Below are positions 4,197-24,880 of a DNA stretch of 32,000 nt, one piece after another (within the stretch, counting starts at the first letter, position 1; the number at the start of each line of letters is the position of its first letter). Source of the DNA: Phycisphaera mikurensis NBRC 102666 (GTDB lineage: Bacteria; Planctomycetota; Phycisphaerae; Phycisphaerales; Phycisphaeraceae); NCBI RefSeq assembly GCF_000284115.1, contig NC_017080.1:1980001-2012000 (forward strand), in the 5' to 3' direction. The notes below the pieces were generated by a model. It was not told the DNA's origin, searched no databases, and was given only the letters and a program-made list of their open reading frames with translations. Both the position numbers and the translations under genes were made by a program.

Positions 4197-4266
4197 CGGG
4201 CGAGTGTACGGATGGGGTGCTACCGTTCCTTTCCCGAACAGGGATTCTGCGTGGCGGAGGTCGTAC

Positions 4267-4500
4267 GGGCAGCGCTTCGCTTCATCACAGAGGGCGCAGA
4301 GGCACGGAGGCCACGGAGAGAGGCACAGAGGTGGATGGTTTTGCGTCGATCCAGCAGAAGAGATGGTCCTGTTGACGCTGGTAGTTTCGATCGCGGAGTC
4401 GAAGCCGAGGCCGCGGGCGAGTCCGCGGGGCCAATCCTGACTTCTTCTCTCCGTGCCTCCTCTGTGGCCTCTGTGCCTCCGTGTCCTCTGTGATCTGCCT
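4267..4500. mobile_element. MITE-like nonautonomous element (family A) in the uvrD-recN divergent intergenic region; the right end is degenerate.
   Basis: The left terminus GGGCAGCGCTTCGCTTCATCACAGAGG matches both termini of the 27032-27309 element. Subterminal 8-nt purine-rich units (GCACGGAG-like, 4291-4335) are mirrored by their complement (4441-4495). Confidence 0.5.
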
Positions 4501-4517
4501 CGGAAGGATCCGCGACG

Positions 4518-6257
4518 ATGCTCAACCAGCTCCACATCCAGAACCTCGCCGTCATCGAGGACGCCACGGTGGACTTCGCCGAGGGGCTCAACGTGTTCAC
4601 GGGCGCCACCGGGGCGGGCAAGTCGCTGGTGATCGGGGCTTTCGAGGCGCTGCTCGGGCTGCGCAAGGCGACGGACATGGTGCGGCCCGGGGCGAAGGAG
4701 GCGCGGATCTCCGGCTTGTTCACGCTGGACGATCCGCGGGCGGCGGCGGAGGTCGGCGAGGCGCTCGACCAGGAGATCGCCGCCGGCGAGGAGTTCCTGC
4801 TCACGCGGAAGCTGTTCGCGTCCGGCCGCTCCAGCGTGTCCGTGAACGGCCAGCCCGCGACGGCGGCGATGCTCGCGCGGGCGGCGGAGTCGCTCGTGGA
4901 CATCCACGGCCAGCACGACCACCAGCACCTCTTCAAGCCGGCCCACCAGCTGGCGATCCTCGACGGCTACGCCGGCACCGAAGCGCTGCGGGACCGCTTC
5001 GCCGCGGGCTTCGCGGAGCTGCGTTCGATGAAGAAGAAGCGGGATCGGCTCGCCGCCTCCGCCGAGCTGCGCGAGCAACAACGCGACCTGGCGCAGTTCC
5101 AGCTCGACGAGATCGACGCGGTGGAGCCGCAGGAGGGCGAGTTTCCCGAGCTCGCCAGCCGCGGGGCCGTGCTCGGCAACGTGCAGTCGCTCAAAGCGGA
5201 TGCGGCGCGTTGTTACGGCGCGCTGTATGAAGCCGACGGCTCGATCAACGAGCGGCTGCAGGGGCTCACCGGGATCCTCCTCGACGTCGCGGAGACGGAT
5301 CCGTCGGCCGCGCCCATCGCCGAGGCCGTCCGCTCCGCCACGATGATGCTCCAGGAGGCGGCCTTCGATCTGTCCCGCTACGAGAGCCGGCTGGAGACCG
5401 ACCCCGAGGAGGCCGCCGAGGTGGAGGCCCGGCTCAACCAGCTCAACCGGCTCATCGCCAAGCACGGCGACGGCCGCAGCGGCCGGCACGTCGTCGGCGG
5501 AGAGGACCCGCTGCAGCCGGTGATCGACAAGCGGAACCAGCTCGCCGAGCAGCTCGAGAAGCTGGCCGCCGCCGAGACGGACGCGGGCGGCCTGGACGCG
5601 CAGATCGAGGCCGCCGAGCGGGCGCTGGACGAGCTGGCCGGGGCGCTGACGGTGAAGCGGAAGGCCGCCGCCGCCGAGCTCGCCCCCGCCGTCGCGGCGC
5701 AGCTCGCCGAGCTGGGCATGGTCGGGGCGACGCTGGACGTCGGCTTCGATGCCGCCGACGACACGCCCTCGGGCCGCGACCGGATCGAGTTCCTCGCCCG
5801 CACCAACCCCGGCCAGCCCGAGCGTCCGCTGCGGGCGATCGCCTCCGGCGGCGAGCTCTCGCGCGTGATGCTCGCGCTCAAGGGCGTCCTCCACGGCGGA
5901 GACCGCATCTCGGTCCTCGTCTTCGACGAGGTCGACGCGAACATCGGCGGGCGGTTGGGGTCGGTGATCGGGCGGAAGCTGCGGGCGCTGGCGGATGCAG
6001 ATGCCGCGGAAGGGCCGAAACCGCAGGTCCTCTGCATCACGCACCTCGCGCAGATCGCCGCCTTCGGCGACAAGCACTTCGTCATCCAGAAGAGGACGAC
6101 CGGCTCGAAGAAGACCGATTCCACCGCGACGACCGTCGCCGCCATCGACGGCAAGGCCCGCGTCGACGAACTCGCCGAGATGCTCGCGGGCGCCGAGGCG
6201 ACCCCGACGACGAGGAAGCAAGCCCGCGAGCTCCTCCGCGTGGCGGAGCGGGGGTGA
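4518..6257 (+). CDS. recN: DNA repair protein RecN.
   Basis: The 579-aa ORF starts MLNQLHIQNLAVIEDATVDFAEGLNVFTGATGAGKSLV (Walker A), has long coiled-coil middle regions, carries the SGGELSRVMLALK signature and ends its ATPase core with VLVFDEVDANIGG (Walker B). Confidence 0.95.
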   Translation: MLNQLHIQNLAVIEDATVDFAEGLNVFTGATGAGKSLVIGAFEALLGLRKATDMVRPGAKEARISGLFTLDDPRAAAEVGEALDQEIAAGEEFLLTRKLFASGRSSVSVNGQPATAAMLARAAESLVDIHGQHDHQHLFKPAHQLAILDGYAGTEALRDRFAAGFAELRSMKKKRDRLAASAELREQQRDLAQFQLDEIDAVEPQEGEFPELASRGAVLGNVQSLKADAARCYGALYEADGSINERLQGLTGILLDVAETDPSAAPIAEAVRSATMMLQEAAFDLSRYESRLETDPEEAAEVEARLNQLNRLIAKHGDGRSGRHVVGGEDPLQPVIDKRNQLAEQLEKLAAAETDAGGLDAQIEAAERALDELAGALTVKRKAAAAELAPAVAAQLAELGMVGATLDVGFDAADDTPSGRDRIEFLARTNPGQPERPLRAIASGGELSRVMLALKGVLHGGDRISVLVFDEVDANIGGRLGSVIGRKLRALADADAAEGPKPQVLCITHLAQIAAFGDKHFVIQKRTTGSKKTDSTATTVAAIDGKARVDELAEMLAGAEATPTTRKQARELLRVAERG

Positions 6258-6271
6258 CGGTCCGCGCAGCG

Positions 6272-6481
6272 GACGCGAAAGCCGGATCGCTGCGCGATCC
6301 GGGCCGAGCGGGAGGGCGGCTCCCGGGGGGTCCAATCCGCGGCTGCGCAGCGGGTCGGCTCCAAGGGTCGAATCCGCGGCTGCGCCGCGAGTCGGCTTCG
6401 CCGACGCCCGGACCGCGGCAGCGGTCCGGCTTCCGCGTAGGCTGCGCCCACCGGTTCGGGCCGCGGGGGCCCGGACACCGC
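6272..6481 (+). repeat. Composite REP-1 element (~210 bp) with two CCGG-stem hairpins and an internal ~37-bp tandem duplication.
   Basis: Hairpins are CCGGATCGC-TGC-GCGATCCGG (6282-6302) and CCGGACCGC-GGCA-GCGGTCCGG (6408-6429). The tandem units GGTC(C/G)AATCCGCGGCTGCGC lie at about 6327-6400. An inverted copy lies at 18087-18278. Confidence 0.7.
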
Positions 6482-6592: not shown

Positions 6593-9019
6593 TCAGCCCA
6601 CGCGACGGCGGCGGAGCACGAGCGTGGCGAGGGCGAGCAGGCCGGCGGCGCCGGGCTCGGGCACGACGGTGAGGGTGGTCAGGGTCGTGGTGCCGCCCAG
6701 CGGCGTGAAGCTCAGGCCCAGGTCCGACGCGGGGGTGCCGGGCTGCACGACCGGGCCGAGGTCGTACGCGCCCACCCGCAGTCCGCCGGCGTCGAAGAAG
6801 GCGACGACGGCGTCGTCGGCCTGCGACGGCGTGGGCGTGACGGGCCCGGGGTCGAGCAGGCGGCCGCTCCGCGAGCCCAGCGCCACCACGCCGAGCCCGT
6901 CGCCGACGCTCAGGACGACCTCCCCGGTGGAGGGGTCGTAGGTGCCCGAAGCGGTGCCGGCCGCGGCGGCCGCGGCAACGCCCGCGGAAGCGGCGTCGGC
7001 GAAGACGCCCGCGGACCGCGACGCCGCGGCGCCCGACGCCGCGCCCACCGTTGCCCCCAGGTTGCCGGCGAGCAGCTGGGCGTCGCCGGTGCCGGTGAAC
7101 ACCTCGGCCACGTCCACGTCGCCGTCGCCGCTGAAGTCGCCGTCCACCCACGCGGCGCCTCCGGTGATCCCCAGGTTGCTCGCGAGGATCTGCGCGTCGC
7201 CGTTCCCGGTGAACACCTCCGCCACGTCCACGTCGCCGTCGAGGTTCGCGTCGCCGATGAGGGCGCGGGTCGCGTGCACGCCGGCGGCGTCGTACGTCAC
7301 CGCCAACGCGGTGCCGTCCTCGAAGGGCGCCTGCGCGACGGTGGCGAAGCGGCCCCCGAGGTCGCCGGCGGCGAGCACGGTGGCCCGCTCGTAGGGCGCA
7401 GGCACGGCTTCGGGGCTCGACGCGGTAAGCTCCAGCCCGCCGGCGAGCGTGGCGGTCCCGCTGGTGGTGAGCACGGCTCCGGGTTCGTCGTGGAACTGGA
7501 CGATCAGGCGGCCGCCGTTGTACTGCTCCAGGTCGCCGCCGCCCAGGTCGTTGACGCCCGCGGCGAGGATCGCCCCGCCGTCGTTGAGCACGTCGCCGGT
7601 GGTCTCGGCGTTGACGAGCAGGAGCTGGCCGAAGTTCTCCACCTCGCGGCCGAAGTCGGCGGTGCTGTCGATGAGGGTGAGGCTCGCGTTGGGGTTGACG
7701 TCCACGCGGCCACCCGCGAACACGCCCAGGTGGCCCTCCCGCACCAGGACCTGAGCGAGGTCATATAGATCGAGAAGCTCGCCCCCCTCCACCCGCCCGC
7801 CCGGCTGGACCTCCAACGAAGCGTCCTCCTCGAGGATGAAGCTCCCGCCGTCGCCGATCCGCACCGTGCCGCCGACCTCAACGGAACCGTCGGGGGCAAC
7901 GGACAGCCCGGCGGCCGCGTCGACGAGGCCGCCGGCGGAGACCCCGAGCGTCGCGTCGGTCCCGAGCGTCACGCCCTCGGGGGAGGTGAGGGTCCCGCCG
8001 ACCCGCATCCCGGCACCGGCGTCCACCGGTGTCCGCAGGTCGCTGTGGAGCTTGCCCGCGACCACCAGCTCTCCGGCGTCGACGCGGAGGCGGCCCACCC
8101 GGCTGTCCTCGCCTGCGAGGGTCAGCGTATAACCGGCATTGTCCACCACCAGCGTGCCGGAGCCGCCGAGGTCGCCGGAGAAGGTCGTCGCCGTGGCGCC
8201 GTTGGAGTGGCTGCCGACGGTGAGGATGGCCGCGGAGCCGGCCAGATCCACCACCCCGGTGCCGCTGAGCGAGGCGATGCGGTCGTCCACCTCGTCGACC
8301 AGGAACGTGCCGTCCGCACGCACGCGGGTCCCGTCGCTGAGGCGGCCGTTGTCGGCCAGCCGGACCGTCCCCGACGCGATGTTCAGCTCCGAGAAGCCGT
8401 TCCCGCTGCCCCGCAGGTGGACCCTGGACGTCTCGGGCAGGTCCACCGTCACCGTCTGCCCCGGGGCGATCAGGTTCCGGTTGAAGAAGACGGCGCCGCC
8501 CGAGAGCGTCGGTTCCCTGGCGGTGCGCCGGAAGCCGATCGTGATCCCGCGGTCGTAGGAGTGAACCGGGCGTTCGAAGCCCAGGACGCCGGGCTTGCTG
8601 AGCCAGATGCCGAAGTCTTCGGCGCCTCCGCCGACGACGTCGAGCCGCGTGTAGAAGCGGTTGCGGGCGGCGTGGTTCAGGTAGATCTCGTCCGTGATGC
8701 CCAGCCGGCCGTCGCCGCGGAGATCGAAGCCCGGCTCGCCCGCCTCGCCGGAGAAGGTGACCCGGTCGACGGTGTACGCCAAGTTGACGTCGACCTGGTA
8801 CCGCTCCGTCGCGATGCCCGCCTGGAAGACCGCCGCCTGGTCGAGATCGGACGACTCGGCGCGCCTGGGGTATTGCTGGTCGCCCCAGTTGCGGTTGAGG
8901 TTCCATGCGGCGCTGTTGTCGTCCCACCCCGTCCAGGTCACGGCCTCGGCGGTCTCGATGCAGAAGCTTGCTTGGAGGAAGGCGGCGGCGAGGGGAAGCA
9001 GGCGTCGGTCAATCGGCAC
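6593..9019 (-). CDS. Secreted surface protein: autotransporter-associated beta-strand (PATR)-type repeats, two dockerin/EF-hand-like repeats, and a PEP-CTERM anchor.
   Basis: GTG at 9019 is preceded by AGGAGG. Signal peptide RRLLPLAAAFLQASFCIETAEA. PATR-like stretches SGTGVVDLAGSAAILTV...GSGTLVVDNAGYTLTLAG...AGELVVAG. Repeats GDANLDGDVDVAEVFTGNGDAQILASNLG and DGDFSGDGDVDVAEVFTGTGDAQLLAGNLG. C-terminus VPEPGAAGLLALATLVLRRRRVG. The tracked 1199-aa ORF is an upstream read-through. Confidence 0.8.
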   Translation of the reverse strand: MPIDRRLLPLAAAFLQASFCIETAEAVTWTGWDDNSAAWNLNRNWGDQQYPRRAESSDLDQAAVFQAGIATERYQVDVNLAYTVDRVTFSGEAGEPGFDLRGDGRLGITDEIYLNHAARNRFYTRLDVVGGGAEDFGIWLSKPGVLGFERPVHSYDRGITIGFRRTAREPTLSGGAVFFNRNLIAPGQTVTVDLPETSRVHLRGSGNGFSELNIASGTVRLADNGRLSDGTRVRADGTFLVDEVDDRIASLSGTGVVDLAGSAAILTVGSHSNGATATTFSGDLGGSGTLVVDNAGYTLTLAGEDSRVGRLRVDAGELVVAGKLHSDLRTPVDAGAGMRVGGTLTSPEGVTLGTDATLGVSAGGLVDAAAGLSVAPDGSVEVGGTVRIGDGGSFILEEDASLEVQPGGRVEGGELLDLYDLAQVLVREGHLGVFAGGRVDVNPNASLTLIDSTADFGREVENFGQLLLVNAETTGDVLNDGGAILAAGVNDLGGGDLEQYNGGRLIVQFHDEPGAVLTTSGTATLAGGLELTASSPEAVPAPYERATVLAAGDLGGRFATVAQAPFEDGTALAVTYDAAGVHATRALIGDANLDGDVDVAEVFTGNGDAQILASNLGITGGAAWVDGDFSGDGDVDVAEVFTGTGDAQLLAGNLGATVGAASGAAASRSAGVFADAASAGVAAAAAAGTASGTYDPSTGEVVLSVGDGLGVVALGSRSGRLLDPGPVTPTPSQADDAVVAFFDAGGLRVGAYDLGPVVQPGTPASDLGLSFTPLGGTTTLTTLTVVPEPGAAGLLALATLVLRRRRVG

Positions 9020-9028
9020 GGAAGGGTT

Positions 9029-9034
9029 CCTCCT
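9029..9034 (-). promoter_or_regulatory. Shine-Dalgarno sequence of the PEP-CTERM gene.
   Basis: The minus strand reads AGGAGG-aacccttcc-GTG, a 9-nt spacer to the GTG at 9019. Confidence 0.6.
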
Positions 9035-9500
9035 GCGGCCTCGGGCGAGGCTCGGATCGGGTGAAAGGGACGGGATGGGTCGGGCGCGTGGCCGCGAGAC
9101 GCGAGAGCGTCTCCCCGAGCCTCGGCCGGCCCACGCGGAGACGGTGGTGGTGTCGGAGCGGCCATCGCGTGTGCATGCCAGCCTCTTTCCCGGGTCCATT
9201 GGCGCGACCCCGCGGGTGGAAGCTACCAGACCCTTCGCCGGAGGAAAAGTCGATGGGGCGCTGGATCGAGCACTTGTCATCCGCAGGACCGAGCGGAGCG
9301 CGGATCGGCGGAGGCGACAGCGTGCCCCGCGGACACCCCGCGCCGATCGTCGCCCACGCGCCGCGCCTCGGCTGCCTGCGCCAGCCGCTCCGCAATGCGA
9401 GGCGGGCCGCTCGAACGCCGCCGGTGCCCGCGCTCGAGCCCGCCCCGCGGCAGCCGTCTGGTTTCCGCCTGGGCTGCGCCCCCCGGCGAGGGAGGCGGAC

Positions 9501-9546
9501 CCGCGGACCGCGCCCGAACACGCCGCGGAACGGTGACGGTCCGCGG
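9501..9546. repeat. REP-2 hairpin, copy in duplication unit 1.
   Basis: CCGCGGACCG (9501-9510) pairs with CGGTCCGCGG (9537-9546). It lies immediately 3' (minus sense) of the FN3-like fragment stop. Confidence 0.7.
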
Positions 9547-9578
9547 CGCCGAAGGTTTTCTTGTGCTTCGAGGAAGGG

Positions 9579-9836
9579 TTACGCGGCGATGCGGAGGGGG
9601 GCGGCGTCCGCGGCCGCGTTGGCGACGAAGCGGAGGATGCCCGGCTCGCTCCAGCCGCTCTGGCGGGTGCCGCGGGCGGCGCGGACCTGGTAGGCCACCT
9701 GCTGGGTGCCCGAGGGCACCGAGTCGTCGGTGAAGGGCCGGCCCGTGTTGTAGGCCAGCGCCGTCCAAGGCCCGGCGTCGCCGGCGGCGTCGATGGGCTG
9801 GCGCTGCGGCTGCGGTGTCCAGGCCCCGGCGAACAG
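9579..9836 (-). pseudogene. Truncated FN3-like gene fragment, copy 1, with no start codon.
   Basis: It encodes ...WTPQPQRQPIDAAGDAGPWTALAYNTGRPFTDDSVPSGTQQVAYQVRAARGTRQSGWSEPGILRFVANAAADAAPLRIAA*. This frame is closed upstream by the copy-2 stop at 9930-9932 and has no ATG or GTG. It is homologous to the C-terminus of 17059..17742. Confidence 0.6.
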
Positions 9837-9851
9837 GCGAGGGAGGCGGAC

Positions 9852-9897
9852 CCGCGGACCGCGCCCGAAAACGCCGCGGAACGGTGACGGTCCGCGG
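9852..9897. repeat. REP-2 hairpin, copy in duplication unit 2.
   Basis: Same sequence as 9501-9546, shifted by 351 bp. Confidence 0.7.
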
Positions 9898-9929
9898 CGC
9901 CGAAGGTTTTCTTGTGCTTCGAGGAAGGG

Positions 9930-10223
9930 TTACGCGGCGATGCGGAGGGGGGCGGCGTCCGCGGCCGCGTTGGCGACGAAGCGGAGGATGCCCGGCTCGC
10001 TCCAGCCGCTCTGGCGGGTGCCGCGGGCGGCGCGGACCTGGTAGGCCACCTGCTGGGTGCCCGAGGGCACCGAGTCGTCGGTGAAGGGCCGGCCCGTGTT
10101 GTGGGCCAGCGCCGTCCAGGGCCCGGCGTCGCCGGCGGCGTCGATGGGCTGGCGCTGCGGCTGCGGTGTCCAGGCCCCGGCGAACAGTTCATTCCATTCC
10201 ATCATTGGACGTATGGACCGCAT
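9930..10223 (-). pseudogene. Truncated FN3-like gene fragment, copy 2. The 97-aa ORF borrows ATG codons from inside the OLD gene 3' end.
   Basis: The ORF is MRSIRPMMEWNELFAGAWTPQPQ...LRIAA*. Homology to the 227-aa paralog begins mid-domain at about WTPQPQ. The first 12 codons overlap 10189-10223 of the OLD CDS in another frame. Confidence 0.5.
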
Positions 10224-12666
10224 CAGCCAGCGTAGTCAACGATGCTCTTACGTCCGTCAGCTCAAGCGCATCGTCTGAACTGCGCTCGTTAAGTTTGAAG
10301 GTCGATCGTGTCTCTAGGATGGCCGCTCGATAACGGTCTGCTTCAGCAGTGTCGTCGAGAAGAGCCTCTATAGCCTCCAAAGTTTGGATCAACAGTCCTG
10401 CTGATACAGGATCCTTGAGGCGGCCGGCCACAGAGTTACATTCCCGCTTAATCCGCCGGTCAAGACGTTCTTCGTTGAGTAAGCGAACTGCGACCCGGCG
10501 CTTCCACTCAATAGCAGTAATGAGTTTGCTAAATCTTTCCAGGGTGGCTGAACGTGCAGATCTGAATGCGTCCGAGTCAAGGTCCAACCCGTTTGGCTGC
10601 TCTGCACACTCAAGAACGGCAACGACCTCCTTTGCCATACCGAGCTTGTCAAGATCCCGCTCCGGTTCACCTCCAGAGCGAGCGACCGCTCTATAAACCT
10701 CCTGAAAGCTAAGAGTCCGCGAATCGCCGTCTTCGGCTGCCGGAACACTAGACAGCAGATTGTCTCTAGCGACATCAATAAAGTTTGCGAAGTAAGACCA
10801 CGCTGCGCAGAAAGCAATCAAGGGGTCGATGAGAGACTCGATATCGGTAAAGGACGCAGTAGTTTTGCTGCTTGACTCCATCTCATCGTGATCTTGTGAG
10901 TTTAGAACATCAGCGATCGTCATCACAAACTCCTCCGCAATCTTCGCTCTTCCTTTTCCTCCTCTTTTGAGTGCCCGTGCCACCTGCTTACCCTCAGGAT
11001 CTGAGTCAAGGAGCACTAGCGCGGCAGGCTTCTCAATATCGCGTCCCCGCGCTAAATGAAGAAGATACTCAATGTGAGAAGCTGATCCGGCAGGCACAAT
11101 CGTCATCGAATTCAGGTTGAGCTGCCGTAGAGAGTCCTTCATCATAGAAGCCAATACACGGTTCACGCCGGCGATGTATACTTGGTCGGATATACCTTCA
11201 ACAAAAAGGTTGCAGTTGCCGATGAAGGCGGTTTCTGCGGTGAATGCGCCGATAGATGATCGGAGCGGTTCGTAATGGTTGCGGCTGGCGTTAGATACAA
11301 CCCGTGTTCCTTCAGCCATGGCACCCTTGTCTACCACACGGATCGCGTGCGCCTTGTTCTTATCGATCAGGTATGGCGAGTGGGTCACCATGAGGACTTG
11401 CATTTTAGGTCTGCCGAGACCCCCGTTGGAGAAGTCGTCGAGGATCTTTAAGAGATCCTGCTGCGCACTAGCCGAAAGGTAAGCATCGGGCTCATCCATC
11501 AGCAAAACTTCAGGTCTCCCATCTGGATTCACGTGAGTTAGATACTGGGCATAATATGCAAGGAAGTGCTTCAGCCCGCTAGATCGCTCGTCGAACGAGT
11601 AGGTCGTACCGGTTCGGTCCCTGATCACGAAAGCTAGATCAGTTTCCCGCAGGCTCAGCTCGATTCGGAAGTCCTTGTCCTGCGCCCACACATTCGGGAA
11701 ATCGAGACATTCATCGAGTTCGCGGTTGATGGTCGACATCACGCCGTCCGCATAACCTTCTTTGTTTCCCTCGACCGATCTCATGACCTCGCCGAAAGCT
11801 TTGGCGTCGATGCCTGCTGCTTTGAGCAGAAGGTCTCGTGCCAATCGCATATCAGCTTCTTTCGATCGTTCCTCATACTGGATCGCATCGACTAAGTTCT
11901 TGACTGCTGCCGGTATAGCTGCTGCGGGACTTGTTTTTTTGCTAGCGTCGTATGCGGCCAGAGCGAGCTTAGCCCCCTCGCCTTCTGCCTCGATTAGGCG
12001 ACGGCTTTCCCGCGTCAGCCTCGATGGAACCTGTTCCGCCTCGCCGTCGACAAGAAATCTTACGCTCAATGTGTCGGGAAGTTCCGCTTGTTCTCTGAGC
12101 CTGATAGTCCGAGGCAACAACTTTCGGAAAGATGCCGCCTTCTTTGCATCCAGCTTGACTTCCTCAAAGCCATCCTCTCCCGCTCTGTAGAGGTCCAGCC
12201 CTGCACCCTGCCCTGTGAAAAAGTAGATCCGTCCTGATCGAGTGCTGCTCGCCTCTTGTTTCTTGCCAAAGTACTGTGCCTCAAGCTCATTGGCATTATG
12301 CATCTCAACACCAAACTCGGGCTTCGCCATCATCCCAGTCTTTGCAGAGAAGAAAGGGGAGTATCGACAGAAATCCTCATGCTTAATTCCGTCGCCGGAA
12401 AGTGCAATCTCGATTGCTCGAAGTAGCTGGCTTTTGCCTGACTCATTCGCTCCAACGATGGTGGTAATCTCTTTCTCAAGAGAGATCCGAACGTGCGGGA
12501 ACCACTCGTCGCGAAACATTTCCCACGCTCTTGGTCTGGCAGAAGTTTGACTTTTCTTGAGGTAATCAAAATTAAACGATTTATAGAATCGCACATAGAT
12601 GGCCTTGAGGAGAATCGGGCTGTCGCCGGCTCTTCCATCTATCTCAGCTTCGTTGTGTTCAGGCAT
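10189..12666 (-). CDS. OLD-family ABC-ATPase + Toprim nuclease (class-1 OLD-like or fused PARIS AriA-AriB-like), 825 aa.
   Basis: Walker A GANESGKS (nt 12430-12453), signature-like SSGLKHFLAYY, Walker B EVLLMDEPDAYLS, H-loop MVTHSP, Toprim NLFVEGISDQVYI and LVLLDSDPEGK, plus a ~235-aa helical C-terminal extension. GC is about 45-50% against about 70% in the flanks. Confidence 0.85.
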   Translation of the reverse strand: MPEHNEAEIDGRAGDSPILLKAIYVRFYKSFNFDYLKKSQTSARPRAWEMFRDEWFPHVRISLEKEITTIVGANESGKSQLLRAIEIALSGDGIKHEDFCRYSPFFSAKTGMMAKPEFGVEMHNANELEAQYFGKKQEASSTRSGRIYFFTGQGAGLDLYRAGEDGFEEVKLDAKKAASFRKLLPRTIRLREQAELPDTLSVRFLVDGEAEQVPSRLTRESRRLIEAEGEGAKLALAAYDASKKTSPAAAIPAAVKNLVDAIQYEERSKEADMRLARDLLLKAAGIDAKAFGEVMRSVEGNKEGYADGVMSTINRELDECLDFPNVWAQDKDFRIELSLRETDLAFVIRDRTGTTYSFDERSSGLKHFLAYYAQYLTHVNPDGRPEVLLMDEPDAYLSASAQQDLLKILDDFSNGGLGRPKMQVLMVTHSPYLIDKNKAHAIRVVDKGAMAEGTRVVSNASRNHYEPLRSSIGAFTAETAFIGNCNLFVEGISDQVYIAGVNRVLASMMKDSLRQLNLNSMTIVPAGSASHIEYLLHLARGRDIEKPAALVLLDSDPEGKQVARALKRGGKGRAKIAEEFVMTIADVLNSQDHDEMESSSKTTASFTDIESLIDPLIAFCAAWSYFANFIDVARDNLLSSVPAAEDGDSRTLSFQEVYRAVARSGGEPERDLDKLGMAKEVVAVLECAEQPNGLDLDSDAFRSARSATLERFSKLITAIEWKRRVAVRLLNEERLDRRIKRECNSVAGRLKDPVSAGLLIQTLEAIEALLDDTAEADRYRAAILETRSTFKLNERSSDDALELTDVRASLTTLADAVHTSNDGME

Positions 12667-12711
12667 ACTCGGACCGAATGCTTTCTGAGGATTGAGAATG
12701 ACACTAGGTTG

Positions 12712-15700
12712 TCAGGCGGCAAACTTGACTTGCCCGCTCAAGTCAGCGTCTCCTTTGGTGGCCAGGCCGAGGGAGGTGAGGGTTTCGCAGATCTCGGTGA
12801 TCTGGGCGAGGCGGGTTTTGGCGGTGGGGAAGGAGGCGGCGAGGGCTTCGGGGGTGAGGGGGGTGGGGCTGGCGGTGAGGAGGTCGCGGAGGATGGCGGT
12901 CTGGGCGGGGAGGGTGTCGGGCCAGCGGAGCTTCTTTCCGCTGGGCTTCTTGGGGGCGGGGGCGTCGGGGAGGTCGAGGGTGGTCTGCTGCTCGGTGGTG
13001 GCTTCCTTCCCCTGCGGGTTCTGAAAGTCGGGGCGGAGCCAGCGGACGTGGCCGGTGGCTTCTTCGGCGGCGCGTTCGGCGTTGAGGGCGACGAGGCGTT
13101 CGAGGAGGGGCTCGTCGATGTCGTCGCCGCGCTGGTGGCGGTTCCAGAGGTCGGACCAGCCGTAGGCGGCGAAGACGGCGGCGTCGAGGTCGTCGTGGAG
13201 CTGCTTCAGGACGGAGACGAGGCCTTGCTCGTGGGTGAGCTTCTCCTTGGCGGTGAGAGGCTCGCCGGAGCGGAGCTTCTCCAGGACGTTGTAGACGTTG
13301 GTGAGGGTGAGCTTGGGGTGGGCGGCCTGCTGACGCTTGCGGTGGGTGTCCAGTCGCTCCGCAACGGCCGCGACTTGGTCCAGCTGATCTTTCTCCTTGT
13401 CAGGAAATGGGAAGCGGTTGAGACAGTCAGCATGGTTGTACGTCGAGTCGTTGCCGACGCCGAGCCATCCGCCGATCCAGGTCGCGAAGTTTGTGTGGAT
13501 TACCGACGAGAGGATCCCGAGCGTTGAGGCACGCTGGTCGGCGATGGCCACAACCTTGGCGTCGGGCAGCGTCGATTCATCAGCGAAGGCGAAGACGCGG
13601 TGCTTGGCTGTGCGGCAGGTGCCGATCCAGCGAGGAAGACCCGCAAGTGCCCGACGGAACTTCAACCTGGGCTCCGCGAAGATCCACCACTCGCGGCGGT
13701 ACTTCTTTCGAGTGTTCTGGTCTCGGTCCGGCTTCACGCGTTCGACGATCCACTGATAAGCCTCAGGATGACCGTCCTGAAGCGTTTCATCGGTCTCGCC
13801 GCTTGCATCCAAGACGTACCGCCCGGTCGGAACCTGCATCAAGTCGCGTCCGTTGATGTAACGCCGAATCAATGCTTCCCTTGTGGCCGCTGGAAACTGA
13901 TCAAGGTCTGCTTCCTCAACAACAAAGCCCATCCCGGACAGCTGGACGCCCGGGCAGGCGAGGCCCTGATTCGCCTTCAACTGGACCGCCGAGGACTTAC
14001 TCACCCCGATGGTTAGGCCGGCGTTGATCGATCCTGTCGTCTGCTGGAGGTCTTCACCCGCTTCCGTAGTCGACAGAACCCCATCGCCGGTACGTCGATC
14101 GACGACAGTCATCGCGACCCGAACGGCAGCAGCGCCTGCTTCATCCGTCCAGGGGTGGTCAGAGATCGCGAAGGCATACCCGATTTCATGGTCCGGCCCG
14201 ACCAACGTGGAAATGATCCGGCGATTGAACGGCTGCGAGATGCTGTTCGTGGTGATGAGTCCGAACGCTCTGAGCTTCTCCGCTTTGACCGCCTCGGCGC
14301 ACCTCAGCCACCAGTAGAGCACGAAGTCGAGACCATTCCCGTAGTCCGAGTAGGTCGCCCGAAGAGCATCCACGTAACCGCTCCCCAGAGCAGCGCGCAT
14401 CTTCTTGTCCCCGATGAACGGCGGATTCCCGACGACGAAGTCCGCCTCCGGCCACTCCGCCTTCCGCGGGTTCACGTACGTGTACGTCACCTCCCGCGCA
14501 GTCTCGTCCGGCACGTCCTCGCCGGTGACCGGGTGCTTCTTCGTCGTGCGGCCGTCCCAGCGGGTGACGGGCTGGCCTTGCTCGTCGGTGACGAGCTTCT
14601 TCTCGTCGTAGGCGAGCACGGCGTCGCGGTTCTCGATGTTGGCAAAGGCCTGGAGGATCGGCTCGGAGGGGGTGGTGCCGCGGTGGGTGCGGTGGTGCCA
14701 CTGGAGGTGACCGATCCACAGGACCAGGTCGGCGATGGCGGCGGCGCGCGGGTTGAGCTCGATGCCCTTGAGCAGGTGCGGGTCGACGGTGATGCCGGCG
14801 CTCTCGAGTTCCAGCGGGGTCTGACCGCCGAGGTCGAAGAGGGTCTGGCGGACCTCGGCCTCCAGCCGCTTCATGTGCTCGAGGGTGACGTAGAGGAAGT
14901 TGCCGCTGCCGCAGGCCGGGTCGAGCACGGTGGTGTTGCACAGCTCGTGGAGGAAGTCGTCGACGGCGCGGCGGGCCTGCTTGGGCTTGCCCAGGCGGTC
15001 GAGGGTGAGGGCCGCGGCCTGGGCGTTGCTCCACCGCTCACGGAGCGGCTCGATGACCGTGGGCAGCACCAGCCGCTCGACGTAAGCCCGCGGCGTGTAG
15101 TGGGCGCCGAGCTTGTGACGCTCCCGCGGGTCGAGGGCACGCTCCAGGAGGGTGCCGAAGATGGCGGGCTCCACGTCGCTCCAATCCTGCTCGGCGGCGT
15201 CGATGAGCAGCTTGAGCTGGTCGGCGTCGAGGGGGATGGCGTGGCACTCGGCGAACAGGCCGCCGTTGAAGCGGAGCACGGGCGCTTCGAGGGCGGCGGA
15301 CACGCCGCCGGTGTTCATCTCCTTCCACAGGCTCTCGACCAGCGGGGCGAACAGCTCGGGCTTGTGCTCGATCCGCTTCAGGAAGGACGTGAAGGACTCT
15401 TTGGGGATCAGGTCGATGTCTTCCGCGAAGAGCGTGAAGAGCACGCGCATCAGGAAGTGAGCGACGACCTCGGCGTTTTGGCCGGTCTTCTCCAGCGAGC
15501 GGGAGAGCTTGGCGAGCCGTGCGGCGATGTCGCGGGTGACCTTCGCGCTGCGTTTGGCGGGGTCGAGGTCGAGCGGGTCCGTCCAGGCGGTGGCGAGCAG
15601 CTGGCGGGTCTTCTCGTCGGCCAGCTGCTCGAAGCGGATGCGGTGGCTGGAAGGATCCGGGAAGGGGGTGTACGTGCGGCCGAGGCGGGAGAAGTCGCTG

Positions 15701-16188
15701 TACAGCTCGAAGGTGTGGCCGATGTCGCAGGTGATGAGCAGCGGCGGGTTACCCTCCTCCGGGGGCAGGCTGCGGGCGTAGCGCTCGGCCTGGCCGCGGG
15801 CGGCGAGCATGGCCTGGTCCCACTTGGCGGTGCCGCGGCGGGCGGTGCCCAGGCGGGTCTTGCGGGGCTTGAGGGCCGTGTCGGCGAGGTCGTCGTCGCT
15901 CTTCGCGGCGGGGGTCTCGCTGCCCTGCTTGGCTTCGAGGATGAAGCAGTCGCGCTTGTAGAGGTCGATGAAGCCGGGGGCGGCGCCGCCCTTGCCGTCG
16001 CGGCTGGTGACGGTGCGGTCGAAGACGTACGCGTTCTCGGCGTCGTCGGCGACGGCGGGCTCGGGGCGGGGGACGCCGAGCAGGTCGCACAGCTCGCTCA
16101 GGAAGGTCTGGTAGTTGCCGCGCTCGCTGCCCTCACTCTTGGCCCAGCGGGCGATGAAGTCGGTGGCGGCGGCGTCGGTCCCGGGCAT
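12712..16188 (-). CDS. MmeI-family type IIL (IIG) restriction-modification enzyme: fused endonuclease, N6-adenine methyltransferase and TRD, 1158 aa.
   Basis: N-terminal FIARWAKSEGSERGNYQTFLSELCDLLG; PD-(D/E)XK-like GFIDLYKRDCFILEAKQ (nt 15925-15975); LGAHYTPRAYV; motif I VLDPACGSGNFLY; motif IV GNPPFIG (NPPF at nt 14416-14427); TRD-like REWWIFAEPR and AKHRVFAF; C-terminal helical tail. Confidence 0.85.
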   Translation of the reverse strand: MPGTDAAATDFIARWAKSEGSERGNYQTFLSELCDLLGVPRPEPAVADDAENAYVFDRTVTSRDGKGGAAPGFIDLYKRDCFILEAKQGSETPAAKSDDDLADTALKPRKTRLGTARRGTAKWDQAMLAARGQAERYARSLPPEEGNPPLLITCDIGHTFELYSDFSRLGRTYTPFPDPSSHRIRFEQLADEKTRQLLATAWTDPLDLDPAKRSAKVTRDIAARLAKLSRSLEKTGQNAEVVAHFLMRVLFTLFAEDIDLIPKESFTSFLKRIEHKPELFAPLVESLWKEMNTGGVSAALEAPVLRFNGGLFAECHAIPLDADQLKLLIDAAEQDWSDVEPAIFGTLLERALDPRERHKLGAHYTPRAYVERLVLPTVIEPLRERWSNAQAAALTLDRLGKPKQARRAVDDFLHELCNTTVLDPACGSGNFLYVTLEHMKRLEAEVRQTLFDLGGQTPLELESAGITVDPHLLKGIELNPRAAAIADLVLWIGHLQWHHRTHRGTTPSEPILQAFANIENRDAVLAYDEKKLVTDEQGQPVTRWDGRTTKKHPVTGEDVPDETAREVTYTYVNPRKAEWPEADFVVGNPPFIGDKKMRAALGSGYVDALRATYSDYGNGLDFVLYWWLRCAEAVKAEKLRAFGLITTNSISQPFNRRIISTLVGPDHEIGYAFAISDHPWTDEAGAAAVRVAMTVVDRRTGDGVLSTTEAGEDLQQTTGSINAGLTIGVSKSSAVQLKANQGLACPGVQLSGMGFVVEEADLDQFPAATREALIRRYINGRDLMQVPTGRYVLDASGETDETLQDGHPEAYQWIVERVKPDRDQNTRKKYRREWWIFAEPRLKFRRALAGLPRWIGTCRTAKHRVFAFADESTLPDAKVVAIADQRASTLGILSSVIHTNFATWIGGWLGVGNDSTYNHADCLNRFPFPDKEKDQLDQVAAVAERLDTHRKRQQAAHPKLTLTNVYNVLEKLRSGEPLTAKEKLTHEQGLVSVLKQLHDDLDAAVFAAYGWSDLWNRHQRGDDIDEPLLERLVALNAERAAEEATGHVRWLRPDFQNPQGKEATTEQQTTLDLPDAPAPKKPSGKKLRWPDTLPAQTAILRDLLTASPTPLTPEALAASFPTAKTRLAQITEICETLTSLGLATKGDADLSGQVKFAA

Positions 16189-16366
16189 GGCTTAAGCGAC
16201 GGTACGGGAGGGGGCATGGCGGATTGCGCCGCGGACCTACCGCGCGGACAGCGTGGCGTCCGCGGACCGTGGGGGGCGAGAGGCGGTGCGTGGCCCTCGC
16301 GCGCGAGCGCAGACCACGCTGATCAATCCCGGCGTCGCACCAGCCGCGTCGCAACGCAACGCGGGC

Positions 16367-16455
16367 CGGATCCGCCGGGGCCTGGACACTGCGCCTCTGG
16401 ACATTGGGATCCGCCGGGGATCCGCCGGATCCGCCGGGGCCTGGACACTGCGCCT
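16367..16455. repeat. Direct repeats containing GGATCCGCCGG(GGCCTGGACACTGCGCCTC).
   Basis: The 30-nt GGATCCGCCGGGGCCTGGACACTGCGCCTC occurs at 16367 and 16426 (59-bp period), with extra GGATCCGCCGG copies between them. A related GACACTGCGCCACGAGAACTGCGTGT lies at about 16571, and a GGGGCCTGGACCCCGCGGCC doublet at about 16498-16540. Confidence 0.8.
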
Positions 16456-16733
16456 CGAGAACTGCGTGTCGACCGCTTCTCCGCCGTCGCTTTGTCGCCG
16501 GGGCCTGGACCCCGCGGCCGGGGGCCTGGACCCCGCGGCCGCCTCGCGGACCGGGATCCGCAAAGGTTCAGACACTGCGCCACGAGAACTGCGTGTTGGC
16601 CGTGCATTCGCCGCCGCCCGGCGCAATGGCGGCCGCGGGCACGGCGGCGATTCTCTTCGGGACGACGTCGGGCGTCCTCGGGCCGAGAGGGATCGTCGCG
16701 GCGACGAGGGCCGGCGTATACGTGCCAAGGTCT

Positions 16734-16859
16734 GGCGTCGCAGCGACAAGGTCTCGCGTCTTCGGGACAAGGTTTGCCGTCGAAGGGCCAAGGTTTGGCG
16801 TCTCCGGGACAGGGTTTGGCGTCGCGGCGACGAGGGCGGGCGTTGGCGGAGTCCCGCTC
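16734..16859. repeat. Six tandem 21-bp units (iteron-like array), about 200 bp upstream of the FN3-like gene.
   Basis: Units: CCAAGGTCTGGCGTCGCAGCG / ACAAGGTCTCGCGTCTTCGGG / ACAAGGTTTGCCGTCGAAGGG / CCAAGGTTTGGCGTCTCCGGG / ACAGGGTTTGGCGTCGCGGCG / ACGAGGGCGGGCGTTGGCGGA. The phasing is exactly 21 bp. Confidence 0.85.
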
Positions 16860-17058
16860 TGGGGCTTCCAGGCCGATTTCTGGTCGGGCGGCGTAGGGGA
16901 TGTCCGGACTTTCTCTTGGGTTGCTTCACCCGCCGGGCGGCGCGGCCGATGGGATCGCTGCCGCCGGCCCATGTGTCGGGGCGTCCCCTTCCAGGGTCGG
17001 CCTCCCTTCTGGGGGAGGGACCCGCCAAGCCCGAGACCCGGGCAGAAAGGTGAGCACC

Positions 17059-17742
17059 ATGGCCACCACCCCCGAGAACGCGTACCCGACGACCCGCCTC
17101 CTGCAGATCCAGTTCGGCGAGGACCGGGCGGCCACGATCCAGGCCCAGGCCGACGAGCTGGGCGTGCCGAAGAGCGAGGCGGACCGCTACGCGGACGAGG
17201 TCCAGGCCGCCGCCGAGGCCAACACGGCGTACCGGCTGGCCCAGCAGCGGGCCCGCGACCTGGGCGAGACCGCCCGGGCGGCCGCGGCCCGCATGAACCG
17301 CACGGCGGCGTCGGTGATCGCCAACGTGCGGGCCCGAGCGGAGATCTCCGCCGACCCCGCCGCCGTGTACGCGATCGCCAGCATCGCCGCCCGCCAGGCC
17401 CCCACCCCGCAGGGCCCGCCGGCCGCGCCCACGGCGGTGACCTGCACGCTGGGCTCCGACGGCGTGACGACGATCACCTGGGCCGGCAGCACCCAGGGGA
17501 CGACCTTCACGGTCGAACGTGAGCTGCTGATGGCCGACGGCACGACGGTGCCCTTCGCGGCCTTCGCCGGCCCGACGGGCCGCCCGATCCAGGACGGCAC
17601 GGTCCCCGTGGGCACCGCGACCGCCCGCTACCGCGTGAAGGCCTTCCGCGGCAACCAGTCGTCCGCGTGGAGCACGCCCGGCGTCCTCCAGCTCGTCAAC
17701 AACGAGACCCTGGCGGCGAACAACCTCCGCCTCGCCGCCTGA
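17059..17742 (+). CDS. Hypothetical protein with a helical N-terminal half and a C-terminal FN3-like beta domain; intact paralog of the 9579/9930 fragments.
   Basis: ATG at 17059 is preceded by GAAAGGTGAG. The C-terminal TCTLGSDGVTTITWAGSTQGTTFTVERE...PTGRPIQDGTVPVGTATARYRVKAFRGNQSSAWSTPGVLQLV...LRLAA aligns residue for residue with the left-hand fragments. A CCCCCC-TGC-GGGGGG hairpin follows the stop. Confidence 0.6.
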   Translation: MATTPENAYPTTRLLQIQFGEDRAATIQAQADELGVPKSEADRYADEVQAAAEANTAYRLAQQRARDLGETARAAAARMNRTAASVIANVRARAEISADPAAVYAIASIAARQAPTPQGPPAAPTAVTCTLGSDGVTTITWAGSTQGTTFTVERELLMADGTTVPFAAFAGPTGRPIQDGTVPVGTATARYRVKAFRGNQSSAWSTPGVLQLVNNETLAANNLRLAA

Positions 17743-18086: not shown

Positions 18087-18278
18087 GCGGTGTCCAGACA
18101 CCGGCAAACCGCCGGCCAACCGCCGATCCACCCCCAAGGTGGGCGCAGACCCCGCGAAAGCCGGACCGCTGCTCCGGTCCGGGCGTCGGCGCAGCCGCGC
18201 GCGGCACATCCGCGGCTCCTCCCCCCGTAACCGCTTCCCCGCTCGGCCCGGATCGCGCAGCGATCCGGCCTTCGCGTC
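18087..18278 (-). repeat. Composite REP-1 element, inverted copy of 6272-6481.
   Basis: The reverse complement begins GACGCGAAGGCCGGATCGCTGCGCGATCCGGGCCGAGCGGG, about 40 nt near-identical to 6272-6311. It continues with GCGGCTGCGCCGACGCCCGGACCGGAGCAGCGGTCCGGCTTTCGCG and ...CTGCGCCCACC...GGACACCGC. Hairpins lie at 18161-18182 and 18248-18268. Confidence 0.7.
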
Positions 18279-18364: not shown

Positions 18365-19690
18365 ATGCCCCTGCTCCCCTTACACTGCTCCATGATCGCC
18401 GACCTGCTGAGGGCTGAGAAGCTGGTCCGGCAAGCGGTGCTCGATCAAGTCACCTCTGAATCTGTATTCATCCGACTGCTCCAACGGGCCGCACCGGACG
18501 TTCCTCGCGAGGTCATCGAGGCGGCTGTGCCTCTCCTGCTCGCTGGTCAGCAGGTGCATGTGGACGACGAGCACGACCAGCTGATCACAGCCATCCAGGT
18601 ACTTACAGAGGAGAGACTGGCGCGCGCTCTTGATCGCGCAGTTTCCCGCAGCCAGCGGCGGGCGACGCGAGCGTTGCACGAGCACTTTGAGGCGGAGATG
18701 CTTCCCGCATGGCTCTCATCGTTCGACGCGGACAGAGTCAGATCCCGAAGAAGATTGGAGAAGGCGAGGAGACAGCATCGGAAGATCGTCATGACCTTCT
18801 GGAGCGATCCTCTAGACCGCTTCGACCTCCTTGTCGAACTCTTCCGATCCATTCCCTCCTTCATGGAGGCAGAAGACGCGCACGATCCGGATTCTGCTCC
18901 TGTAGACGATGCAAGGGATCCGAAGGCTACTGCGATTGCACAGATTCATGCCCGCGGGACACGTGTCGTCGGTGAGATCGCGCTGCTCCTCCGCGGCGGG
19001 TTTGCGGACGGCGCATTCGCTCGATGGCGGGCGTTCCACGAACTCGCGGTCATCGCGACCTTCCTGAGCGCTGGAGATGCGGACCTTTCAGAAGCCTACC
19101 TCGATCACCGTGTCGTTGGCCACAATCGAAAAGCGCGATCGCTCGCCGAGCACGGAGAGCAGATGGGGGAGGAGCCGCTCGACGCCGAGCATTTCGAGCA
19201 AGTAGAAGCCGCTTACGTGGCAGCGGTCGAGCGGTACGGCAAGCCCTTCAAACAGCAGTATGGTTGGGCCAACGCTCATCTCAAGACTGAGAAGCGGGTG
19301 ACATTCGAGCAAATTGAGAAAGCCGCCGGCCTGACGCCTTGGAGACTTTGGACCAACGCGGCTAGCGACTCGGTGCATGCAGGCAGCGAAGGTTGTTTCT
19401 ACAGCTTCGGCGGACACGAGCCGGGCGAGGTTCCTGAAACCGAAGCGATCGATGGACTCAATGTCGCAGGCTGCAAAGCCTGCGAGTCAATTCGTATCTT
19501 TGGTGCTGCGACCCTCACCAGCCGCACCGCCTTCCCTCGTTTCGCCGTGTACCGCATCCTTGCGGCCGTGGCGGCCGACTGCCATAATGCCTTCGAAGTG
19601 GCGGCGGAAACGCTCGCCGAGCATTGGGTGTCGCCGGAGGAGCTGCCAGCCGAACTCGCAGCCGAGCTGCGGCGAATGAGCGGCGACTGA
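18365..19690 (+). CDS. Hypothetical protein, DUF5677-like (tentative).
   Basis: Only the lower-GC 3' two-thirds of tracked ORF 17831..19690 looks coding. Candidate starts are ATG 18365 or 18392. The stretch RGTRVVGEIALLLRGGFADGAFARWRAFHELAVIATFL...YLDH...YGWANAHL...WTNAASDSVHAG resembles my recollection of DUF5677. GC is about 53-58%. Confidence 0.5.
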   Translation: MPLLPLHCSMIADLLRAEKLVRQAVLDQVTSESVFIRLLQRAAPDVPREVIEAAVPLLLAGQQVHVDDEHDQLITAIQVLTEERLARALDRAVSRSQRRATRALHEHFEAEMLPAWLSSFDADRVRSRRRLEKARRQHRKIVMTFWSDPLDRFDLLVELFRSIPSFMEAEDAHDPDSAPVDDARDPKATAIAQIHARGTRVVGEIALLLRGGFADGAFARWRAFHELAVIATFLSAGDADLSEAYLDHRVVGHNRKARSLAEHGEQMGEEPLDAEHFEQVEAAYVAAVERYGKPFKQQYGWANAHLKTEKRVTFEQIEKAAGLTPWRLWTNAASDSVHAGSEGCFYSFGGHEPGEVPETEAIDGLNVAGCKACESIRIFGAATLTSRTAFPRFAVYRILAAVAADCHNAFEVAAETLAEHWVSPEELPAELAAELRRMSGD

Positions 19691-19714: not shown

Positions 19715-19762
19715 GGCCCGCGAAAGTGTCGGCCCGCGAAAGTGTCGGCCCGCGAAAGTGTC
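19715..19762. repeat. Three tandem copies of the 16-mer GGCCCGCGAAAGTGTC.
   Basis: Exact copies start at 19715, 19731 and 19747. A fourth copy at 19976-19991 marks the junction of the 229-bp duplication. Confidence 0.9.
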
Positions 19763-20204
19763 AGGAACATTCATGCTGCTTCCTCCGCCTCCCAATCCTC
19801 CACCGCCAGTCCGGGCACGAGGTCGAAGTGCTTGCGGTTGTGGGTGACGACGGTGCAGCCGTGAACCAAGGCGGTGGCCGCGATCGCTGCGTCGAAGGGG
19901 CCGATGGGGGTGCCGGCGCGGCGGAGAGGGGCGTTGACACGCGCCCACTGCTCAGCCACGGGTCCGTCGAAGGGGGGCCCGCGAAAGTGTCAGGAACATT
20001 CATGCTGCTTCCTCCGCCTCCCAGTCCTCCACCGCCAGCCCGGGCACGAGGTCGAAGTGCTTCCAGTTGTGGGTGACGACGGTGCAGCCGTGGACCAAGG
20101 CGGTGGCCGCAATCGCTGCGTCGAAGGGGCCGATGGGGGTGCCGGCGCGGCGGAGAGGGGCGTTGACACGCGCCCACTGCTCAGCCACGGGTTCGTCGAA
20201 GGGG
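19747..20204. repeat. Tandem duplication, 2 x 229 bp, about 96% identical, covering the vapC 3' end.
   Basis: Unit 19747-19975 repeats at 19976-20204 with about 8 mismatches. GAARGGG microhomology lies at the junctions. Confidence 0.9.
19771..19959 (-). pseudogene. Duplicated vapC 3' fragment (C-terminal 62 codons).
   Basis: MAEQWARVNAPLRRAGTPIGPFDAAIAATALVHGCTVVTHNRKHFDLVPGLAVEDWEAEEAA is near-identical to the C-terminus of 20000..20416. Confidence 0.8.
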
Positions 20205-20416
20205 TGGCTGGGGTACAGGGCAAAGAGCGACCGCATCCGTTCAAGGTCCCGCTCCGGGTCCTTGGCGAGCCGTGCTCCCTGCAGCAGCTCCGCCTTCACG
20301 ATCTCAGACAAGACGATGCCGTCAGCGACGTAAGCGGCGGAGAGACGGGAAGCAAGCGCGCTGCGGGGGTGTCTGAAGCTGTAGATCTAGGCGTTGCTGT
20401 CGAGCAGGTAGGTCAA
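20000..20416 (-). pseudogene. vapC: PIN-domain toxin VapC with an in-frame TAG at codon 10.
   Basis: The frame from TTG 20416 reads (L)TYLLDSNA*IYSFRHPRSALASRLSAAYVADGIVLSEIVKAELLQG...PFD...DAAIAATALVHGCTVVTHNWKHF. The TAG is at 20389..20387. The downstream Met ORF (20311) would lack the first catalytic Asp. Confidence 0.7.
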
Positions 20417-23746: not shown

Positions 23747-23760
23747 CCGCTGCGTGGATC

Positions 23761-24862: not shown

Positions 24863-24880
24863 GCGGGACGGTAGAGGGCT

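Follow-up and report, generated by a model that had tools for sequence, protein, structure and literature searches.

Adjacent MmeI-like and long-form OLD genes in Phycisphaera mikurensis: two probable single-gene immune systems in a defense island

Do two immune genes that lie side by side on one strand form a single system, or are they separate systems that have come to be neighbors? A locus in Phycisphaera mikurensis raises this question. Within the 32,000-nucleotide stretch of GC-rich (~0.72) chromosomal DNA analyzed here (the window, to which all positions refer), two intact open reading frames (ORFs) lie on the minus strand: 12712..16188, encoding an 1158-amino acid (aa) MmeI-like restriction–modification (R-M) protein, and 10189..12666, encoding an 825-aa protein of the OLD family. 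The P. mikurensis entries WP_014437065 and WP_014437066 at NCBI are 100% identical to the two proteins. A first-pass annotation, made from the sequence alone, had placed both ORFs correctly with a gap of 45 bp between them, and all 12 of the motifs it quoted are present. It went on to interpret the pair as a two-gene defense module in which the OLD-like protein was probably a fused AriA–AriB of the PARIS type. We find instead that the genes most probably represent two autonomous single-gene immune systems, neighbors by chance in a small defense and toxin–antitoxin island. This is ordinary defense-island stacking rather than a new two-gene system, and there is no evidence of a functional tie between the MmeI-like and OLD genes.

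Neighborhoods and composition of the gene pair

The neighborhoods of homologs provide the principal evidence. Loci were taken from 80 of the 310 genome matches to the OLD-like protein, including up to 10 kb of each flank, and searched for MmeI-like genes by tblastn (E ≤ 1e-5). None of these 80 full-length OLD homologs had an MmeI-like gene within 10 kb, and none was found at the four loci of the closest metagenomic homologs, which adjoin integrase and relaxase genes, SMODS and Mrr genes, or a type I R-M system accompanied by an integrase and by toxin–antitoxin genes. The reciprocal set comprised 83 MmeI-like loci: 80 of 125 metagenome matches and the three nearest relatives. No OLD-family match was obtained in the 80 metagenome loci, either by tblastn with 26 queries or with a hidden Markov model (HMM) of the family, and the three nearest relatives (70, 65, and 58% identity) are followed by unrelated genes, none of them OLD-like. 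Within these samples, therefore, homologs of the two genes are never adjacent elsewhere (0/84 OLD loci, 0/83 MmeI-like loci), and the proposed two-gene module is not supported.

Neither family keeps a constant partner of any other kind. The largest neighbor cluster common to OLD loci occurs in 6 of the 80, and the 122 immediate OLD neighbors distribute over 142 Pfam families, each common to five of them at most. These neighbors include HrpA, PutA, a TrwC relaxase, an Mrr-ResIII enzyme, and helicases, with R-M-type domains in only a few. Around MmeI-like genes the commonest neighbor recurs in at most 7 of 83 loci; the MmeI family was likewise described as lacking a conserved neighbor gene by Morgan et al. 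2009 (PMC2731913). Downstream of two of these three nearest relatives, and on their strand, lies an unannotated gene of 276–290 aa without a Pfam match (L163 5813-6643, L165 3903-4775).

The base composition of the two genes is also discordant. The guanine–cytosine fraction (GC) is 0.523 in the OLD gene, 0.670 in the MmeI-like gene, and 0.721 in the rest of the window, and GC at third codon positions is 0.55 in the OLD gene versus 0.88 in the MmeI-like gene. Measured over 200 nt at a time, GC falls from 0.755 to 0.525 at ~10190 and steps up from 0.46 to 0.67–0.73 at ~12711, with values of 0.45–0.46 at 12400-12699. Because the steps fall at these two positions, the low-GC block corresponds exactly to the OLD ORF together with the 45-bp spacer. 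A block so sharply bounded suggests a separate and later insertion of the OLD gene; on compositional grounds, then, the locus points to an OLD gene that arrived independently of, and after, the MmeI-like gene. Across the OLD family, GC is mostly lower than in the flanks (median difference −0.057; 46 of 75 below −0.05), as expected of mobile immune cargo.

The downstream edge of the insertion is marked by the tandem duplication of 351 bp, which we interpret as the scar left where the insertion cut a resident gene short. Each copy comprises the remnant of a gene 3′ end, 85 aa long, followed by a GC-rich terminator-like hairpin. Both remnants (9930-10187 and 9579-9836) come from a paralog of the ORF at 16900-17742(+), whose C-terminus they match with 44% identity (E 1e-17); the public assembly annotates them as small genes of 90 aa and 46 aa.

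Other repeats surround the pair. The 20-mer GCCGGGGCCTGGACACYGCG occurs in eight copies with no more than three mismatches (0.05 expected), at window positions 6463, 9811, 10162, 16374, 16433, 16497, 16518, and 18086. Those at 9811 and 10162 fall inside the duplicated remnants, and the others are outside the confidently coding genes around the defense pair; one copy is 8 bp from the OLD stop codon. The element may be a species-specific repeat resembling repetitive extragenic palindromes (REP-like), or a candidate binding-site array. Inverted-repeat arms were also observed at 6272-6452 and 18138-18278, in two pairs of 58–60 nt that are 88% complementary and contain short hairpins. The 11.7-kb segment between them holds a PEP-CTERM gene, the OLD and MmeI-like genes, and the ORF at 16900-17742, with no transposase or integrase inside. 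A mobile element bounded by these inverted repeats was considered; the repeats belong to short intergenic repeat families and to paralogous gene ends with their hairpins.

Domains and family relationships of the two proteins

The identification of the larger protein as an MmeI-family type IIL enzyme is well founded. Its domains follow the order PD-ExK nuclease, helical spacer, gamma-class N6-methyladenine methyltransferase, target recognition domain (TRD), and C-terminal helices. Pfam recovers its four MmeI models in that order, each exceeding its gathering score: MmeI_N (97.7 bits), MmeI_hel (60.9 bits; aa 242-312, the helical spacer between nuclease and methyltransferase), MmeI_Mtase (107.8 bits), and MmeI_TRD (29.1 bits versus 27). 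The PADLOC model REase_MTase_IIG (PDLC03627) matches end to end, with 1467 bits across aa 8-1146. The spacing of the catalytic motif (Table 1) equals that of MmeI itself, D70-X9-E80-X-K82 (PMC2731913). GAHYTP lies at aa 361-366 and WWIFAEPR at aa 834-841, and the TRD closes with an FPFP motif (aa 926-929, nt 13402-13413), which is where the TRD ends in the MmeI family (PMC2731913); the C-terminal helices then follow.

Comparison with MmeI and RpaB5I thus extends to all four domains, the D-X9-E-X-K spacing, methyltransferase motifs I and IV, and the FPFP-ended TRD, and the length of 1158 aa falls inside the published family range of 908–1184 aa (PMC2731913). The family resemblance includes the absence of a conserved flanking gene and of a companion DNA methyltransferase. 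Neither gene call flanking the MmeI-like gene (the OLD gene and a 263-aa call without a Pfam match) contains a methyltransferase domain, and the sole other methyltransferase nearby is a generic 245-aa S-adenosylmethionine (SAM) enzyme, 5 kb off. No structural difference from the family was found, and the nearest database relative is 70% identical. On each sequence feature tested, the P. mikurensis protein is a regular MmeI-family member.

The OLD-like protein consists of an ABC ATPase with a helical insertion in its N-terminal 460 residues, a Toprim nuclease, and a helical C-terminal tail. Its ATPase is matched by Pfam families AAA_21 (64 bits) and AAA_15 (54 bits). In an alignment of 26 sequences of the long-form OLD family (A1), the ATPase residues S362, G364, L365, D391, E392, D394, and H429 are invariant, as are the Toprim residues E490, G491, D494, D554, D556, and G559. 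The last group lies in the two Toprim motifs, FVEGISDQ (488-495, carrying the catalytic glutamate; E490, D494) and LLDSDPEGK (552-560, the DxD motif; D554, D556). OLD-like_TOPRIM (PF20469) matches 22 of the 26 long-form members (best E 1.6e-5), and the predicted model of the 825-aa protein shows a beta/alpha Toprim-like pattern over this region.

The first-pass annotation had also remarked on a tail of ~235 aa after the Toprim domain. The tail is real and conserved across the full length of the homologs, with K674, R724, R728, and R741 invariant in A1. The AlphaFold model of the whole protein has a predicted local distance difference test score (pLDDT) of 72, rising to 85–91 at aa 700-820 of the tail. 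A structure search with the tail returned no solved structure at E < 1. The tail is specific to the long-form OLD family.

This long-form (~800 aa) family is widespread and uncharacterized. Homolog searches returned 1771 database matches, from at least 310 species genomes. The best homologs, of 780–860 aa, are ~40% identical over 93–97% of the length and represent Actinomycetota, Planctomycetota, Cyanobacteria, Acidobacteriota, and Proteobacteria; among the full-length members listed, lengths range from ~780 to 900 aa.

OLD classes are defined by gene context (PMC10568477, PMC12796447). As a gene that stands alone in variable neighborhoods, the P. mikurensis gene agrees with Class 1, to which Ts OLD (6p74), P2 Old, and Vc OLD belong, and it shares with these a single-polypeptide ABC ATPase with a helical insertion and an acidic Toprim domain. 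The best match among PDB entries is 6p74, both by sequence (single-sequence phmmer E 0.002, a very low similarity; family profile 1.8e-8) and by fold (top Foldseek match of the AlphaFold model, E 2.2e-11, 624 columns aligned); the retron protein PtuA, Eco8 OLD, AriA, and GajA matched more weakly, via the common ATPase. The protein differs from Class 1 in its extra ~235-aa helical tail and its 825-aa length, against a Class 1 survey cut-off of 500–600 aa (PMC12392090). P2 Old, moreover, is phage-borne, whereas 2.9 million viral contigs contained no true long-form member; the matches there reached Walker-A level only, and phage carriage of the family was rejected on this basis. Because the protein exceeds the Class 1 length and carries an extra domain, it is best described as a long-form stand-alone OLD, Class-1-type by context but not a typical Class 1 enzyme. 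In the part of a supplement that was searched for the published uncharacterized OLD clades U1–U11 (PMC12796447), the long-form accessions and family motifs were not found.

Table 1. Positions of the two genes, their principal domains and motifs, and the adjoining features (window coordinates)
Feature	Position	Strand	Basis or remark
MmeI-family type IIL (IIG) R-M gene, 1158 aa	12712..16188	-	Pfam, PADLOC
PD-ExK catalytic motif GFIDLYKRDCFILEAKQ	15925..15975, aa 72-88	-	D75-X9-E85-X-K87
Methyltransferase motif I DPACGSGNFLY, AdoMet binding	14890..14922, aa 423-433	-	Motif location
Methyltransferase motif IV GNPPFIG, catalytic NPPF	14410..14430, aa 587-593	-	Motif location
TRD	13399..13887, aa 768-930	-	Pfam MmeI_TRD
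Spacer between MmeI-like and OLD genes	12667..12711	-	45 bp; compositionally part of the low-GC block
Stand-alone long-form OLD-family gene, 825 aa	10189..12666	-	AAA_21, AAA_15, 6p74 match
Walker A GANESGKS	12430..12453, aa 72-79	-	Invariant in alignment A1
SSGLKH signature (362-367), LLMDEPD Walker B/D-loop (388-394), MVTHSP H-loop (426-431)	11374..11583	-	Alignment A1
Toprim domain	10897..11214, aa 485-590	-	PF20469 match, invariant residues, model
Helical C-terminal tail, ~235 aa	10192..10896, aa 591-825	-	Conserved in A1, predicted model
Tandem duplication, 351 bp, 99% identical	9485..10190	-	Abuts OLD stop codon

Proposed mechanism and rival explanations

Working independently, the two proteins would act as follows. 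By inference from its family (PMC2731913), the MmeI-like enzyme would bind an asymmetric site of 6–7 bp as one polypeptide, protect the host by methylating just one adenine, in one of the strands, and, given AdoMet and two sites, cut unmodified DNA ~20/18 nt away. The OLD protein probably dimerizes through the helical insertion of its ABC ATPase, and, as in related proteins, ATP binding and hydrolysis would be coupled to a two-metal Toprim nuclease and the conserved tail. Among stand-alone OLDs, Vc OLD nicks replicating phage DNA (PMC12392090) and P2 Old severs tRNA anticodon stems (PMC12445682). By analogy, an infection cue could lead to ATP-controlled cleavage of DNA (nicking) or tRNA, and hence to blocked phage replication or death of the cell. 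The OLD gene would have been inserted as a low-GC cassette directly behind the MmeI-like gene, and transcription from the promoter of the latter may extend into it.

Several observations weigh against treating the two genes as independent immune systems. They lie on one strand 45 bp apart, and a terminator scan of the spacer on the minus strand detected no terminator-like site; for these reasons, co-transcription and some lineage-specific interplay are possible. Sampling of the homologous loci was partial, with at least 2.5 kb of downstream sequence at 44 of the 83 MmeI-like loci. PF20469 scores 16 bits (E 0.018; aa 485-556) on the 825-aa protein itself, below its gathering score of 23.2.

Whether the OLD gene is an immune gene at all can also be questioned. 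An alternative is a housekeeping role, as for Cran1, an archaeal Class 5 OLD-family ATPase with a non-defense function (PMC12796447), and the long-form family has no known phage phenotype. We regard this as quite improbable. The family is patchy across phyla, its GC lies below that of its flanks, and its neighborhoods vary, adjoining integrases, a relaxase, transposases, and R-M, SMODS, and toxin–antitoxin genes, a pattern opposite to that of the vertically inherited, syntenic Cran1.

The rival put forward by the first-pass annotation is a co-evolved and co-transcribed guard-plus-backup module, in which the OLD/PARIS-like protein stands guard over the MmeI-like enzyme: it would detect inhibitors of that enzyme, such as Ocr-like proteins, and be triggered by a block of restriction. 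Apart from the close, same-strand arrangement without a detected terminator, the idea draws on the precedent logic of PrrC–EcoprrI and PARIS. The anticodon nuclease PrrC is encoded within the type I R-M locus EcoprrI, is released by a phage anti-restriction peptide, and has a conserved linkage to its R-M genes. PARIS, for its part, is described as an 'antirestriction induced' system (PMC11464382). The proposed module would resemble PrrC–EcoprrI as an NTPase–nuclease genetically linked to the restriction system it backs up; it differs in that the MmeI-like/OLD pairing is unique to one genome among the sampled loci and that the two genes are of different origin. A conserved R-M linkage like that of a PrrC-type guard was seen at none of the 84 OLD and 83 MmeI-like loci, the composition of the genes is discordant, the cassette has sharp boundaries, and both families occur alone in variable contexts. 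A co-evolved guard module is accordingly an unlikely explanation, on a par with the housekeeping role.

A more restricted form of the idea would confine the partnership to one lineage: the OLD gene, captured behind the MmeI-like gene and co-transcribed with it, could serve as a PrrC-like backup when a phage blocks or evades restriction. We consider this highly improbable; if true, the two genes would represent a guard pair at its birth, observed before it had spread. In a weaker version, the long-form clade, with its conserved helical tail, would form a separate kind of immune system in which one gene also supplies the sensor domain.

Turning to the identity of the OLD-like protein as a fused AriA–AriB (PARIS 'merge', Class 4 OLD), which would cleave tRNA after a phage trigger, the assignment is very hard to sustain. 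Like PARIS in its fused forms, the protein unites an ABC ATPase of that superfamily with a Toprim nuclease in one polypeptide, and it too has an immune-island context. The best PADLOC matches by E-value are AriA models (4e-17, 3.5e-16), and the AriA structures 8ux9 and 8v49 are among the Foldseek matches (~2-5e-8). These AriA-type matches are, however, restricted to the generic ABC ATPase, and the fused AriAB model PDLC02981 aligns with aa 340-436 only, ~90 ATPase residues. Profile searches recovered the MmeI domains and AAA_15/AAA_21, placed OLD-like_TOPRIM below its threshold, and gave no match to DUF4435, the AriB Toprim, even at E ≤ 1; nor is DUF4435 among the 25 families matching most of the 26 long-form members. 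The family profile found 6p74 among PDB entries but no AriA or AriB at E ≤ 0.01, and the top Foldseek match is the Class 1 Ts OLD. Nothing ties the P. mikurensis protein to Ocr sensing.

A dispersed Gabija-like system (Class 2 OLD), formed by the OLD gene and the UvrD/PcrA helicase gene at 1788-4196, has next to no probability. The earlier annotation was right that no UvrD-like gene or AriB adjoins the OLD gene, but left this helicase gene, on the same strand ~6 kb downstream, unmentioned. The helicase matches PADLOC GajB models, and the OLD protein shares the ATPase–Toprim architecture of GajA and matches its profiles weakly (1e-9 to 1e-13). The product of 1788-4196 is, however, a full-length PcrA/UvrD (TIGR01073, 781 bits; PcrA_UvrD tudor domain), encoded outside the low-GC block and separated from the OLD gene by the PEP-CTERM gene and by recN in convergent orientation; it appears to be a housekeeping helicase. 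The families and neighbor clusters common to the 80 OLD homolog loci include no UvrD-like one, and in place of an adjacent GajB-type helicase the OLD gene is adjoined by the MmeI-like gene and the gene remnant.

The remaining candidates were rejected. A retron (Class 3 OLD) was dismissed with no reverse transcriptase domain within ±10 kb and no Rfam match in the window. For MADS (mad1-8), suggested by PADLOC matches to mad2 and mad3, the NCBIfam MAD2 score is 20.7 bits against a cut-off of 720, and no other mad genes were seen around the pair; both matches reflect generic methyltransferase and ATPase similarity, and the mad2 model also matches the unrelated 245-aa SAM methyltransferase. DrmMI and PglX matches to the C-terminal half or the methyltransferase likewise do not indicate DISARM or BREX, no other components of which are present.

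The surrounding island and the significance of the locus

Within 6 kb of the pair lie genes for Uma2 (PADLOC candidate PDC-S03), PIN toxins, and a DUF5677 protein, which fit a small defense and toxin–antitoxin island; adjacency of unrelated systems is ordinary in such islands. The DUF5677 gene (18392-19690 (+), 432 aa) occupies a stretch of lower GC (0.64–0.65) adjoining the PIN genes and is probably further island cargo. A second tandem duplication (19747-20204; 229 bp, 97% identical) overlaps the PIN toxin gene at 20000-20386 (-) and generates a second, partial PIN ORF.

Because of the high GC, the window contains long ORFs that are spurious or over-extended, and codon-position GC distinguishes their truly coding parts. 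An apparent 1199-aa ORF at 6593-10192, which overlaps the OLD stop codon and would suggest a three-gene operon, is an artifact that reads through the 351-bp tandem duplication: its first ~400 codons are the duplication and low-complexity GC-rich DNA, and the real gene encodes an 808-aa PEP-CTERM protein (6593-9019 (-)). This secreted protein has two 38-residue repeats rich in aspartate and glycine and terminates with a PEP-CTERM-like sorting signal, VPEPGAAGLLALATLVLRRRRVG; searches against Pfam, NCBIfam, and PADLOC gave no match to it. A 1515-aa UvrD fusion (1788-6335 (-)) is over-extended across recN in antisense, the real product being the 802-aa PcrA (1788-4196). The Arg/Pro-rich 263-aa ORF at 16237-17028 (-), which the public assembly annotates as a gene, is spurious or over-extended. 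Farther away, an 8-nt unit, GACGGAGA, recurs with its variants in ~20 copies, in arrays at 23733-23812 and 24869-25044 that lie 1.1 kb apart.

The new defense system claimed for this pair does not hold up and should not be carried forward. What the locus offers is a clean example of stacking, in which a single-gene OLD cassette went in exactly downstream of a restriction gene and left an insertion scar that can still be seen. Judged from its sequence, the MmeI-like protein adds a likely active planctomycete enzyme to the MmeI family. The sole mildly novel element is the uncharacterized long-form OLD clade, a large, phylogenetically broad family that is not phage-borne and that PADLOC models match weakly; characterizing one member would extend knowledge of stand-alone OLD immunity.

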